From assembly GCA_032986305.1 (NCBI GenBank), contig GCA_032986305.1_3672.1: a stretch of 64,000 bases of DNA; one strand, written 5' to 3'. The notes below the pieces were generated by a model. That model ran no database searches. It had not been told where the DNA came from and saw only the letters and a list, made by a program, of their open reading frames with translations. This document shows positions 37,065-62,838 of the stretch, one piece after another. Position 1 is the stretch's first letter. Every line of letters begins with the position of its first letter. The DNA comes from a phage. A program made the translations under genes and the position numbers.

Positions 37065-37219
37065 TAGTATAGTGACTAACAAGAGGTGAGGAATGACAGA
37101 TTTTACTGAAGCTTTAATGATGGCCTTGTCTGTTTTAGCGCTATCGGTGTGTTTTGGGGCGTTATTCACATCTCTGGTTAAAGTTTTACATACAGTATTA
37201 TTACCCAAGGAGCGCAGTA

Positions 37220-39403: not shown

Positions 39404-40985
39404 CACACAATTAGCTGCCCGGCTAAAGTGCTGGAAGCACCTATAACACATCTTTCAACTAAATTTCCCACCACCACAATCACTTACCTCCCACACATGA
39501 CTGTTTGCTTGTTTAGTGAGCAGTCATGCCTTGACATTCTTGCCTATCCTGATAAAATTAAGTTCTTCTCTTTTCTTTTACCGAGTAATTCGGGTTTTCT
39601 GTTCTCTTCGGTTTGAAGAGGTATGGAGATACACCTGAGTGAACAGGGTGAACAACCGAACCATTGGCTATGGCATTAGCATGGCGAAGCGGACGGGTGA
39701 CGAAAGAGGGGCCGGAGGACACCAGTCACTGCCATATGATATACGGGTGATAACCTGAAGAGTCTGAATAAGTGTTTAAGTACCAGTCAGAGGAAAAGGT
39801 GAATGGTAGCCGAAGGGGGAGGGGGGTTTCTTGTATCTTTAATTTGTATATTATGTATACACTTGTAAACCAATCTCATCTGAATCTGTTTACTACACAA
39901 AGCTGATAGGGACAAATATTACCTATTAAACTTGAATTATTTATAGAAAATACCACAACACAACTTAAGTCTTTGATTTTACACACAAATCCTGCAGATA
40001 TTCACCCTCCATATTTAACATACTTGTAACATATTCCATACTCTACCTACCTGATCAATTTACCCACCAACATCCTCCATATTTTCCCTGTCTGTACCAC
40101 CCCTGCCCCGCCGGGAGTCCCGTCATATCTGGCTTTCCAGCAAATATCACACCCACAAATATCATTGCCTGAAGAGGATTTCATCTCATAATACATGCCT
40201 TGCCTGAAGAGCGCTTCATACACCACGTAAATTTTTTAATTGACCCCCTCCCCGCCGCCGGAGAGGTTGGCTTTTCCCACACAGACCTGAAGAGTCAGCC
40301 AGAAATATCTGAATGGACCCAATTCTGCCCTGTTATGAGCCGTAGCTACTGGAGTGCTGCCAGGCGGACGAAATGGGAATACTTCTCATTCTTATAACAA
40401 TTCTCAAATATCAAGGCAGTGAGTCAAATTAATAGGCGAGGCCGTTCACACAGTGGCACAACATTTGCAACCTATCTTGTGGGGGTGAATGAGAATACCT
40501 ATCATTGTGAGAATAGTTATCATTACGGGCAATTTAACATAATACCCATTATGCGCACCACTGGCGATACATACAGGGATTGATAACATGAGTTACTGTT
40601 TACGCATATAACAATTATATTTCTTACTATTTGTGTGGGATATAGTTAGCAGCCAATAGATTAGATATTGACCTGTAGACTTCCAACCGTCTAGACGTCT
40701 AAACGCCCACACAGCAAGGGTTATACATACACTTCTGAATGTAAACAGGGCCGCAAAAATGCTACCATACCAGTTTGTAAATTTTTCATGCAGCACTTGA
40801 CAAAGAGGAGAAAAACTTGTCTGACACTTTAGACACAATAGTGACATACTATGACACCTTTGACACTTTTGCATACCTGATTGTTTGCATGTCTAATAGT
40901 TTACATGGATAACTGTTCACATACTTATCATTTACATGATTGACTGTTTACACAAATATGATAAGCCATGACATTCGTTTGCATG

Positions 40986-41045
40986 AAAACAATTAACAAG
41001 ATAACAATTGACAAGCTAACAGCCAACAAGCTGACAATTAACAGG
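40986..41045. repeat. four tandem 15-bp iteron-like direct repeats
   Basis: AACAATTAACAAG / ATAACAATTGACAAG / CTAACAGCCAACAAG / CTGACAATTAACAGG. Confidence 0.6.
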
Positions 41046-41056
41046 TTAATAATATA

Positions 41057-41229
41057 TGACATAATATAAAAGCAGGGCAACTATTAGCAGATCTATAGTT
41101 GCCTTGCTTGTTATGTCATGATTAACTAAATACAAGGCAACTATGATCTGATTAATAGTTTGCAGACAAACTATCACGGGGGTGATTGTTACTGCTTTTA
41201 TATTATGTCGCGACTCCGTCGCGACATGT
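41057..41229. repeat. nested inverted repeats (cruciform-capable locus)
   Basis: 19-bp arms TGACATAATATAAAAGCAG and CTGCTTTTATATTATGTCA; inner hairpin GGCAACTAT...ATAGTTGCC; 10-bp palindrome ATGTCGCGAC..GTCGCGACAT. Confidence 0.6.
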
Positions 41230-42576: not shown

Positions 42577-42696
42577 CTGTTTTTATAGTTTTTATATAAC
42601 GGGCACCCCCGGTGATTGTCTCCCCCCCGTCGCCAGGTGCCACCCGTGAGATAAGTATAACAAAAAACAGGACCATTGCAAGCCCTGTTTATTATC

Positions 42697-50869: not shown

Positions 50870-51838
50870 CCAGGTTTGCAAGCCTTCATTCTCTCCTACC
50901 TGGTCAGTTAGGTCCTACCAGGCTGGCCCCGCCAGGTTGCAGCGGTTAGCGCATCAGGTTAGAAAATTTTTTTGAAAAGTGTTGACAGCGGCCCAGCCAG
51001 GTGGCACAATATACCTATCGAAAGGACGGCAGGCACCGGTGACGGGGGAGACAACCACCGGGGATGGGCGCTGCATAAAATGAGAACGGTTATCATTATC
51101 CTTTAAAAATTTATGCAAAAATCCTTGCTTTCTTTGTCCTGTGTGATACTATAATAACAAGCCGGGGCAACAGGGGCCGGGAGACAATCACCGGGCCTGC
51201 CCGTTATTCTGCAAACGAGAATGATTATCATTCAAAATTCTAAATGAGAACTCCTCGCATTTAATAAATTTAATTAGCATGCTAATTACCCTCCGTAACA
51301 ATTTCCTATAAAACAGTATCCCATAAAATATTCCCATACAGAAATTTTAAAAATCCATTTCTGAAAACGAAAAATCGATTTCGTCCCCAAAAATTTCAGG
51401 TCGAGATCCGGAACGATTTCTAGAAAATCCGATTTAGAAAACGAAAAACAGATCGAGTACTGAGAAATTTATCGAGAAAAATTTTCAGAAAATTCAATCT
51501 TTGAAACGAAAAACAGATCGAGTACCTGGAAAGCTGCACTGCAACTTCAAGATAGTGGTTAGATTATTACCATAGAAGGTCAAGGGTAAGTGGAGGAAGT
51601 TCTAGTAGAAGGATGTGAGCATGTGTGGGAAATCTGTAATGGTGGCCTGAAATATGGTGCAAACGATAGGATGAGTGATTCAGCTTGTCGCGCCTACTCT
51701 GAAAAAATCCATTTTAGTTTTCGATCCATTTTCTGATTTTCTAAGGATTTTAAAATATCCGGCCCGGTGAAATATCAAAAGGAGGAAATCCATTTTAGAA
51801 ATCCCCCTTATACTTGATATGCCAGGAATTTTCAAGTA
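50870..51838. other. non-coding repeat-rich region
   Basis: No ORF of 60 aa or more; two paralogous promoter-hairpin units at about 50980-51240; direct repeats AAATCCATTT (x5) and GAAAACGAAAAACAGATCGAGTAC (x2). Confidence 0.5.
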
Positions 51839-60138: not shown

Positions 60139-60414
60139 CAATAGTTCAGGTAGGTCGTTAAGCTACCCCGCACCATTACGTGCATAGCCATACGTTTTCA
60201 CGTAGGATCGGACCATCTCATATTCCTATGATAAGCAACCACAGGAATCCTCCCATTTCGACCGCACTTGCTGGTCTACTTCCTTTCGGAATGGCCTCTG
60301 AGCGTTCGCTCTTTTGAGCGCTTCGTTGCGGATTACCTTGCCATAAGGTTTAGGCTTCCCGCAGTTAAAGAGGTTATTCGACATAGATTACTCTATGAAG
60401 CCACAATGTTATTT
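60139..60414 (-). mobile_element. group I-type intron in DNA polymerase gene (ORF-less, about 276 nt)
   Basis: Separates ...IIYYH from DEYQLQV at motif C; exon 1 ends in U, intron ends in G. Confidence 0.5.
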
Positions 60415-62838
60415 ATGGTAATAAATAATACGACGAACACCTTCATCGTACCACCCACGCTTCACCATTTGGTGGTGCATGAGTATCCCAACTAAGTCAC
60501 ACAGCGATGCACCACCATTCTGTTGGTATGCATTAAGTAAAGAGTGTTTAGATCGGGTCCAGATGGCATGACCATCAAAAGAGTAGATAAACTTCTTACC
60601 CGTTGCTTCCCAGAATTTCTCCAGATCCTCTTTACGCCCCTTAAGACCAGGGTTGGCATCCCAAAGTGCATCGATTACCCTTTGTCCCAACTCTGGAGAG
60701 ATGTCCAGCATATCTGCAACTTTATCTTTTTGTGCCCCGTACATAACCCCATACGTGATAGGTTTACCGTCGTTACGGGACACCTCTCTGCCTGCTACTT
60801 TTGTATATGCCTCAGCATTGTTTTGGTGTGCGTCTCCGTTACTTACAACATCGTAATACAGGCCGTTGTCGAACTCAAAGGCACCCCAAGCCCCGATAAG
60901 CTGCTCTAAGTTGGACCCGTCGATACCGATCTCAAAGTATCCTGGAGGAACACCCCACAAGCTACGCATCTCTTTACCCATAACCACTTTAGGAGAGGGT
61001 TTAGGCATGTTTGCACAAATACTGTGTTTCTGTCTGGAAGTGTTTGTTAATCCAGAGCTTTTAGCAGGAAGCTTATGGTCAATCTTCAAGCGTGGGTGAT
61101 TAAGAAGACCAGTATCAACCTTATCCTCCTTGATCGGATCAAGGACCGATCTGCGGTTTCGCAATGATAACCACAAGACGATATCTTTAGCCATCTCTCC
61201 GTTCAATTTTTCAAGATTCGGACATAGGTGTCCAAACGTATCTTTCAGTTGCGGAGAAGTAATAAGTGCCCTAGCTTTTCTACGTATTTTCCTGAATACT
61301 TCCTTTTTAATCCTTTCGGAGTTAGGAAAGCTTCGGAACTTGTGCACAGTTGTCTGGAACTTAGCATCAGTTTTGTTCCAGAAGTTGATAATTAGGTCAC
61401 AATACTCTGACTCCAAAAGCTCGTCCATATATGCATATACTCGTGCATCAACATCTGCATCAGGTAAAGCTTTCTTCTTGCTGTCTTTAGTTACATCCTT
61501 AGTTCTCCACATTGTCGGAAGCCAGCCAGCACTGATCAGGTATCGCTTAATGTCGTCCTGGTTGCTGATTTTCATAGGTATCTTGCAGTCCGGCATTCGC
61601 TTCTGCTGTAGATCACTTATTGCCTGATCCATCAACTCTTTAGGTAAAGGGTGTGGTGTGGAAGTGCCCTTAATATAGCCTCTCAAGAAATCAGCCATCT
61701 TATCGGGGTCTTTGCATCCCATCTCTTCACACCATTTTATCCCCATCTTGCTGACATCTCCTGTAGAGGTAAATGCTCTCTTAGGCGGGGCTTTGAACTC
61801 TAAAGCGCTCATGTCTACAGGATATCCAAGCTTATCTTTTAACCATTTCCAACCATTATTAGAGATTGTCCCGTCTTGGTTAAACGGCTTTTCAGGGAAC
61901 TTGGGCCGCTGAGACATTGACAGCTCTTTTAAAGGCAGTTGTGGTTCAACACGATCAGCGATTTCTTTCATCCACGCATCGCAACGGTCACGTAAAGCAA
62001 TAGCTCCATCTATGTCGAAATATACGCCCTGACGGGCCTGCAGCTCCATCAGGAAGTGCTGCAGCATACCTCGGCGCAATGCGTTCTTCCAGGTGATCTT
62101 CTTGAACCCTTTTGGCTTCTCTTTGGCAGGATCGTACATAAAGTTCTGCATGTCAGATTTGCCGTAGAATACACCTTTTGATTCCGCTACCAGCTCTTTC
62201 CAGAGCAACTCCTGGATGATAACGTCCTCGAATACACGATCCACATACTTCCACAACGGAAGATCGCGCCAGTCATCAATTTGAACTTTCTGGTTACCAA
62301 GGGCGTAGCCCCATGCCATAAGGCCGTGAGGACCAACAGGCTGCATTTTCTTAGTAACCGGGTTGAATACAGCGTCCGGACAACCTTTTGGTAAAGGGCG
62401 ATCAGGCCACAAGATTCGGCTCATCGCCAACGTATCAAACAGGTTAACCTGGTGGTCGTTGATAGTCCCCATACATTTAGGATCACGGAACATATCAAAA
62501 TGAATACCGGATAATCTCTCCATCAGCATAAAGTCATAACTATAGCAGTTATGGCAGTTCAAAGCTGTTGGTGACCAGTCGGAATTGCCTGTAAGCCAAC
62601 CTTCCAACTCCGAAAAATCTGCTATGCGAACTTCAAAATCTTTATAAAGAGCTTTCTTTGCCAGAATAAAGTTCTTAGCCTTCTCTATATCCTCCTCGGA
62701 GTAGTGTGTGCGGTCATTTAGAGGGAGGAACAGCATAAAACGGTTCTTATTCAGCTCTTTAAACAGGCCGCAGTGATAATAAAGATCTGGGTCTTCCAAA
62801 AGCCCGGAGGCCTCAAAATCGAAGCTATACATGCTCAT
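60415..62838 (-). CDS. DNA polymerase (family A, T7 gp5-like), exon 1
   Basis: N-terminal exo FDFEASGLLEDPDLYYHCG like T7 VSDIEANALLESVTKFHCG; motif A GIDGSNLEQL; motif B RNDGKPITYGVMYG. Confidence 0.8.

Follow-up and report, generated by a model that had tools for sequence, protein, structure and literature searches.

Candidate Fur Boxes Shared by the Terminal Repeat and a Conserved Promoter-Hairpin Cassette of an rV5-like Escherichia coli Phage

Introduction

A short motif shared by two non-coding loci of a phage genome was analyzed and is probably a truncated Fur box, the operator of the iron-sensing repressor Fur of the bacterial host. The DNA in question is a stretch of 64,000 nucleotides (contig GCA_032986305.1_3672.1 of the assembly GCA_032986305.1), which is termed the window throughout and is 91-97% identical to Vequintavirus (rV5-like) E. 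coli myophages, e.g., JES2013, naswa, and rV5; by this sequence identity it is assigned to a Vequintavirus phage. The motif belongs to a palindrome of 19 bp, which is found in three copies in a putative direct terminal repeat (DTR) at 40.5 kb and in three copies in a promoter-hairpin cassette at 51 kb. The explanation as a whole, that is, the Fur box together with the role proposed for it below, is given slightly better than even chances. The site type itself is already known, and it is the deployment in a terminal repeat and in a cassette crossing subfamily borders that is new. The literature searches brought up no description of Fur boxes that form conserved arrays in virulent phages, lie in a phage DTR, or belong to the promoter-hairpin cassette of the Vequintavirinae and Stephanstirmvirinae, nor were the motif strings found in a phage context in the searchable literature.

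The Shared Motif and Its Assignment to Fur

The original prediction had noted the motif in two adjacent copies at 40486-40525 and in single copies at 51092 and 51219, and these positions were correct within a few bases. A scan of the window with GAGAAYRGTTATCATT at no more than two mismatches returned exactly four matches (40491-40506, 40509-40524, 51082-51097, and 51217-51232), all located on the + strand, in comparison with 0.29 expected from shuffled sequences, none of which reached four in 100 attempts. The placement of the motif is non-random, and the frequency stands far above the random level that had been named as one ground for abandoning it. The motif is common to both non-coding loci and looks like a protein-binding site, and in that sense it links them, as had been suggested.

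The GAGAAYRGTTATCATT motif constitutes the 3' five-sixths of a longer, imperfect palindrome of 19 bp. The addition of three bases at its left gives AATGAgAAT-N-ATTmTCATT, a 9-1-9 inverted repeat that is also readable as the 7-1-7 repeat TGAGAAT-N-ATTATCA. With the 19-bp template AATGAKAATNATTMTCATT, which tolerates G or T at position 6 and A or C at position 14, five sites were detected at no more than three mismatches (40372, 40488, 40506, 51079, and 51214) against 0.24 expected in the window, all of them confined to the loci at 40.5 and 51 kb. Weaker second sites overlap the main boxes 6 bp further on (51085 and 51220), and repeat finding added two degenerate copies, TGGGAATACTTCTCATT at 40374 and AAATGAGAACTCCTCGCATT at 51242; the tally for the phage amounts to six copies in two clusters. 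The whole-genome scan that had been proposed as a check was run on the complete relative JES2013 (136.9 kb), where the sites with no more than three mismatches fall into the two homologous loci and one other place.

The 19-mer of the phage equals the Fur-box consensus sequences published for Xanthomonas (AATGAgAATcATTctCATT), Shewanella (AATGATAATAATTATCATT), and B. subtilis (aaTGAtAATnATTaTCAtt) and coincides with the classical E. coli 19-mer after a shift of 3 bp (PMC1790865). The phage copies fit the Fur-box template AATGATAAT-N-ATTATCATT, or TGATAAT-N-ATTATCA, from which they deviate by 1-3 mismatches, while the validated host sites deviate by 3 (fhuA), 2 (nohA), and 1 (nohD). The bacterial Fur boxes, exemplified by fhuA and by the 19-bp consensus GATAATGATAATCATTATC that consists of two overlapping 7-1-7 repeats, follow the same inverted-repeat template. 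Moreover, window 51213-51228 displays a 16-nt identity to the reverse complement (AAACGAGAATGATTAT) of the E. coli K-12 fhuA Fur box, whose promoter sequence reads TATAATAATCATTCTCGTTT; the fhuA promoter region and the region upstream of nohA have both been gel-shift tested, and the latter was confirmed. The phage also shares with the E. coli Fur clusters the habit of overlapping or adjacent sites phased by 6 bp, the offset that Chen et al. reported as typical of such clusters (PMC2189734): among neighbors offset by 6 or 3 bp or lying adjacent, the pairs 51079/51085 and 51214/51220 are offset by 6 bp, and 40488/40506 are adjacent.

The orthologous box of related phage genera is ATGAGAATGATTATCATT, one base off the best copy of the window, and this exact 18-mer is present in at least 120 bacterial genomes. 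Among the matches listed, the hosts comprise Gamma-, Beta-, and Alphaproteobacteria, Bacillota, Cyanobacteria, and Chloroflexota, the site is intergenic in 108 of 120, and the 111 flanking open reading frames (ORFs) include TonB Plug (10), ZnuA-type (6), Fe3+-binding (6), FUR (5), Peripla_BP_2 (4), EfeO-type cupredoxin (4), SufE (3), FeoB (2), FTR1 (2), and ferritin (2) proteins. Plug, ZnuA, FUR, and Peripla_BP_2 are absent from the 25 commonest families among 107 control ORFs more than 2 kb off in the same loci. Since genes of the Fur regulon dominate the flanks and the controls are clean, ATGAGAATGATTATCATT serves as a Fur operator across bacteria; this position upstream of iron genes was seen with the 18-mer of the related genera and not with the window's own copy.

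The Two Loci and Their Conservation

The 40.5-kb locus, rightly described before as non-coding, had not been recognized as a probable DTR. In the GenBank records of YN3 and EdH4, exact repeats of 458 and 459 bp at both ends correspond to window 40363-40821; the bov11CS3 record begins at 40363, and those of ECP2309, EdH4, and Aya end at approximately 40821. Across nine Vequintavirus genomes, conservation of this block is about 95%; its two flanks are divergent, the left one with indels and the right one breaking up into variable GACA-rich repeats. These database records point to a genome end or a concatemer junction, against which it has to be mentioned that one genome announcement described related phages as circularly permuted. 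Since IMG/VR yielded just one contig when searched with a terminal-repeat anchor, the comparison relied on the GenBank relatives. All three boxes of this locus lie within the repeat (Table 1), where the third one varies between the nine phages at three central positions only.

At 51 kb, the "paralogous units" of the original prediction are indeed duplicated units; what had escaped it is that they are promoter-hairpin-box cassettes conserved across phage genera. Window approximately 51177-51268 matches Mydovirus, Seunavirus, Certrevirus, and Phapecoctavirus, the last of which belongs to another subfamily, at 72-86%. The comparison covered 18 distinct loci, four of which were read directly and 14 of which were anchored on an unrelated upstream RNA element. 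Their shared architecture begins with a promoter P1 followed by a structured RNA (RNA1) and a promoter P2 followed by a GC hairpin with the loop GAGACAAACACC; the next 12 nt or so form a spacer (consensus GTCATTCTGCAA), which leads to one to six Fur boxes mostly 29 bp apart, and several repeats of about 70 nt, rich in A5T6 tracts and CGATCGAG, close the cassette. The boxes occupy the same place in all but one of the 18 loci, the exception being broken by an inserted ORF-bearing segment, and across genera box 1 stands at a nearly fixed distance from promoter and hairpin. Most of the related loci in other genera carry the form AATGAGAATGATTATCATT, whose orthologue in the window is box L2, and the 29-bp spacing between L2 and the third box is likewise present in relatives. 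Turnover is evident, as the boxes differ among relatives (AATGAGAATGATTCTCATT, AATGCGAATCACTATCATT, AATAAGAATGCTTCTCATT, and others) and the palindrome is kept, which is the mark that selection for a binding site, and not for a particular sequence, would leave.

RNA1 was searched for in the window and is absent from it; the promoter-hairpin-box unit is present twice instead, so that in Vequintavirus a second hairpin-box unit replaces RNA1. In the loci L003-L006 and L132-L143, RNA1 is situated below P1 about 190 nt upstream of the boxes and follows the pattern …GCCACCCCACGGCGaAAAGGCGGGGCUAAC…ACCnGG-loop-CCnGGU…, which comprises a hairpin with a variable loop and possibly a pseudoknot and has no Rfam match. 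The outer stem of the unit 2 hairpin covaries (A-U/G-C/G-U) in relatives.

Table 1. Positions of the features assigned at the two loci of the window
Feature	Position	Strand	Description
Direct terminal repeat (putative)	40363-40821		459 bp; holds the three boxes of the 40.5-kb locus
Candidate Fur box D1	40372-40390		AATGGGAATACTTCTCATT; 2 mismatches (19-bp template); begins 10 nt from the left edge of the DTR
Candidate Fur box D2	40488-40506		AATGAGAATACCTATCATT; 2 mismatches
Candidate Fur box D3	40506-40524		TGTGAGAATAGTTATCATT; 3 mismatches; abuts D2, start-to-start spacing 18 bp
Unit 1 sigma-70-like promoter	50982-51010	+	TTGACA-17-CACAAT with TG
Unit 1 GC-rich hairpin	51029-51074	+	loop GAGACAACCACC
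Candidate Fur box L1	51079-51097		AATGAGAACGGTTATCATT; 2 mismatches; overlapping second site 51085-51103 (6 bp on)
Unit 2 promoter	51125-51155	+	TTGCTT-19-TATAAT; orthologue of P2 in related genera (17-bp spacer)
Unit 2 GC-rich hairpin	51165-51202	+	loop GAGACAATCACC
Candidate Fur box L2	51214-51232		AACGAGAATGATTATCATT; 1 mismatch; best copy
Degenerate third box	51243-51261		AATGAGAACTCCTCGCATT; 4 mismatches; 29 bp after L2
Three direct repeats of 62-74 nt	51332-51532	+	…GAAAACGAAAAACAGATCGAGTAC…; downstream of the boxes, kept in relatives

The surroundings of the two loci can be read from the JES2013 map, on which the + strand genes of the window form a nucleotide-metabolism block, including NrdA/B and NrdD/G, and the - strand genes form an early and replication block; the two converge at the gap of 40-41.7 kb. 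In the annotation of the relatives, both motif loci are gene-free or contain doubtful small ORFs. The phage also encodes several methyltransferases, and a tRNA scan found none.

Several further elements were observed near the boxes. Within the DTR, at 40685-40708, 160 bp from the Fur boxes, lie three tandem 8-bp units, AACCGTCT AGACGTCT AAACGCCC, the second of which is the met-box consensus; a two-box met probe gave 2 matches against 0.10 expected, and the central box is invariant in the nine phages. By this likeness to the consensus, the array resembles a MetJ operator. To the right of the DTR (40822-41060), a phage-variable GACA-rich array is followed by 31-nt repeats (40877-40954) and by four repeats of 15-bp period, ACAATTAACAAGATAACAAT, at 40989-41053, all of which could be packaging or origin signals. 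At 51 kb, a perfect 18-bp palindrome, TAATTAGCATGCTAATTA (51271-51288), directly follows the third box and may be another operator. The repeats at 51332-51532 contain A/T tracts and a GATC-containing core (AGATCGAGTAC, and CGATCGAGAACC in relatives); they resemble iterons, and a replication origin or a further array of protein-binding sites could be located here. The pseudo-ToxI of phiTE was considered as a possible equivalent of this locus and rejected, as its description does not fit and no sequence resemblance exists. Farther away, a group I intron was identified at 60189-60424 on the - strand (Rfam RF00028, 64.7 bits), in the region corresponding to the DNA-polymerase/HNH-endonuclease part of JES2013.

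The Same Site in Other Phages and Prophages

The exact 18-mer was retrieved in at least 120 IMG/VR stretches, which represent 113 distinct and mostly unrelated contexts. Among the matches listed, 80% of the sites do not lie in an ORF of 100 aa or longer, 38% are accompanied by one to seven further sites within 300 bp, and the site density is 1.33 per kb near the 18-mer in comparison with 0.06 per kb elsewhere. The flanks in unrelated phages extend the consensus to aAATGAGAATGATTATCATTtGCAtt, which is readable as two overlapping dimer sites. In one phage, a run of seven hexamers, (GAGAAT)7, adjoins the Fur box; it was met at the ends of a single 41-kb contig (IMG/VR L021, L059, and L126) and recalls the hexamer-array model of Fur binding.

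In 95 intergenic, mostly unrelated phage contexts, the function annotated most often next to the 18-mer is that of a terminase subunit, small or large, and at least five of these cases are confirmed; just upstream of terminase genes, the Fur box is found in IMG/VR L039, L047, L069, L073, and L090. A comparable position has long been on record for E. coli K-12, whose strongest Fur sites include those of nohA, which was confirmed by gel shift, and of nohB/nohD, which was positive in the titration assay and not gel-shifted. The two sites were located in the K-12 genome (positions 580592 and 1636591), where they precede nohA by 224 bp and nohB/nohD by 242 bp. The noh genes are homologues of the terminase small subunit in the cryptic lambdoid prophages Qin (nohA) and DLP12 (nohB/nohD), which places the sites in the cos region. 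Both sequences (GATGATAATTATTATCATT and AGTGATAATGATTATCATC) fit the same template and are Fur sites in phage DNA near the packaging region; in contrast with the arrays of the present virulent myovirus, with its DTR and promoter-hairpin cassette, they are single sites in temperate prophages of the cos type. Taken with the terminase neighbors, they hint that Fur boxes may generally be associated with the regions of packaging or of the genome ends.

Another Fur operator on phage DNA is the stx1 promoter of the Shiga-toxin phages, which is repressed by Fur. It differs from the sites of the rV5-like phage in being a classical operator that overlaps a promoter and controls one cargo gene of a temperate phage.

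Possible Function and Alternative Explanations

The mechanism proposed for these sites runs as follows. In an iron-replete host, Fur dimers would load onto the arrays. At the 51-kb cassette, Fur would hold up or block, in an iron-dependent manner, the non-coding + strand transcripts from P1 and P2, which would run against the - strand early genes and into the downstream repeats, and at the terminal repeat it would coat the genome ends or the concatemer junctions. The non-coding control regions of the phage would thus be coupled to the iron status of the host, and such a coupling would be relevant because the phage brings its own iron-dependent ribonucleotide reductases, NrdAB and NrdDG. A stall of Fur-blocked transcription after the hairpin is proposed because box 1 keeps a nearly fixed place past the promoter-proximal hairpin in two subfamilies. 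This block of elongation, or operator function, with whatever physiological pay-off it may have, is put forward tentatively, its chances being judged clearly below even.

A number of observations weigh against the assignment to Fur or against the proposed role. The whole assignment is derived from sequence, and at position 6 the copies have G (TGAGAAT) in preference to the T of enterobacteria, which leaves room for a different binder, even though a G at this position is tolerated by natural E. coli sites such as fhuA. Chromosomal Fur boxes differ from those of the phage, whose copies neither overlap a promoter core nor neighbor an iron gene and belong to a virulent phage, where they occupy a terminal repeat and positions past the starts of non-coding transcripts. 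At neither locus do the boxes overlap or abut the -35 or -10 element of a conserved promoter: in the 51-kb cassette they are positioned at about +50 to +100 of the predicted P1/P2 transcripts, each box about 50-60 nt past a promoter, outside the classical operator position, and E. coli Fur clusters placed between promoter and gene repress weakly according to Chen et al. (PMC2189734). Across 106 unrelated phage contexts, the site keeps no preferred distance to sigma-70-like promoters. Over the DTR boxes, a conserved promoter was sought in the window and the Vequintavirus relatives and not found, and inside a repeat whose overall conservation is about 95%, the boxes do not stand out. Moreover, a third promoter and GC-hairpin module at 42590-42690 on the - strand lacks a Fur box, from which it follows that hairpin and box are separable.

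This module consists of the promoter TTGCAA-17-TATACT and a hairpin with the same loop, GAGACAATCACC, followed by a second promoter and a 90-aa gene, and it is kept in JES2013 with stem changes. With three such hairpins close to promoters in each genome, a cis-acting RNA element is suggested, possibly a put-like one. At the DTR, the promoter candidate TTGACT-16-GAGAAT (- strand, 40427-40400) was rejected, its -35 element not being conserved in relatives.

A first alternative regards the arrays as decoys or sponges, which upon replication of the genome to hundreds of copies would titrate Fur and de-repress the iron-uptake regulon of the host for the benefit of the phage ribonucleotide reductases, while the met-box array might titrate MetJ. 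Such decoy operators, Fur boxes and possibly met boxes, would switch on the host supply of iron and perhaps of S-adenosylmethionine. The sites lie in gene-free DNA without classical promoter overlap, the box number varies from one to six among relatives as a dosage function would predict, and of the sites in unrelated phages, 38% are clustered (2-8 per cluster) and 80% avoid ORFs. The MetJ-like array in the same terminal repeat and the NrdAB, NrdDG, and methyltransferase genes of the phage would also fit. That multicopy Fur boxes de-repress the regulon is known from the Fur titration assay, in which a Fur box on a multicopy plasmid de-represses fhuF::lacZ and which recovered the prophage site nohB; the principle is the same, although the assay is a laboratory artefact of plasmids, unlike the phage arrays. 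On the other hand, a pure sponge would not need the nearly fixed distance between box 1 and hairpin that is kept across genera. With six sites per genome in an E. coli cell that contains thousands of Fur molecules, titration would become relevant only late, when host transcription may be irrelevant, and the MetJ part is drawn from consensus resemblance only. To our knowledge, no phage exploits Fur titration. The decoy explanation is considered doubtful, to the same degree as the wider proposition tied to it, by which Fur-box arrays near genome ends or terminase genes would be a widespread route for phages of many hosts to exploit Fur.

In a second alternative, which is judged unlikely, Fur would be an architectural factor of the genome ends that aids terminase cutting or packaging, end protection, or DNA entry, in the manner of IHF at lambda cosB, and the 51-kb copies would have a separate use. 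The position of all three DTR boxes inside the repeat, the first of them close to its left boundary, agrees with this explanation, as do the noh sites and the terminase neighbors described above. Nevertheless, the cassette 10 kb from the end is left unexplained, the terminase enrichment is modest and lacks a proper null, there is no obvious reason for iron-dependent packaging, and the DTR itself is deduced from database records against the announcement of circular permutation. The likeness to the IHF site I1 of lambda cosB is by analogy only, as a site of a host protein adjoining terminase action; the protein and the sequence are different, and the IHF consensus is absent at the motif.

The preference of the copies for TGAGAAT/ATTCTCA over the enterobacterial TGATAAT might instead indicate a phage-encoded DNA-binding protein whose operator happens to resemble a Fur box, and the gene of an uncharacterized "transcriptional regulator" (JES2013 ORF149) lies at a distance of 2.5 kb from the DTR. 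This explanation appears improbable, since the identical 18-mer adjoins Fur-regulon genes in bacteria of many phyla and recurs in more than 100 unrelated phage contexts, beyond the reach of any single phage protein family. A Pfam search of the ten ORFs adjoining both loci detected no DNA-binding domain, Fur-like or otherwise, and no Fur homologue, the sole match being DUF7170 in GAP31.

An RNA-level element, in which the P1/P2 transcripts would form hairpins from the palindromes or pair box 1 with an upstream UCAUUCU, is highly improbable. The boxes are probably transcribed from P1/P2, the minimum-free-energy fold of unit 2 pairs GUUAUUCU with AGAAUGAU, and 85.6% of the cells pair in 16 relatives; this pairing is no better than that of column shuffles, 228 of 500 of which reach it. 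The stem TCATTCT/AGAATGA was rejected as a hairpin, as it shows no covariation beyond shuffles, and RNAalifold on the unit was weak (-1.27 kcal/mol). Furthermore, folding of the terminal-repeat copies yielded weak structure or none (z = +1.0), the stem of the most conserved copy is interrupted by a central G/A mismatch, and a loop of 1 nt is too short to be closed by a 7-1-7 repeat. The identical sequence, moreover, works as a DNA operator in bacteria. An Rfam search of the window and four related loci gave nothing at either locus; its matches were the group I intron (60.2 kb) and a single chance one below the threshold. The motif was not found to be a structured RNA; the neighboring GC hairpin, which shows some covariation, is a separate element.

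The DnaA- or IHF-type site of the original prediction, for which the TTATC core (the first five bases of a DnaA box) and the non-coding, repeat-rich loci could be cited, retains a negligible probability: no copy fits TTATNCACA, whose lone window match is at 37162 (3 expected), or WATCARNNNNTTR, whose 11 window matches (8 expected) include none at the motif, and neither protein explains a palindromic 19-mer.

Significance

The occurrence of the 18-mer in more than 100 unrelated viral contigs means that the phenomenon may be general, and there is a moderate chance of a general phage strategy aimed at Fur. If the assignment holds true, a function would also be at hand for the long-known Fur sites that precede nohA and nohB. 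The rV5-like phages, which are candidates for the therapy of E. coli O157, would then respond to or interfere with the iron regulation of their host, a condition in which laboratory broth and the infected host, starved of iron, are sharply different.

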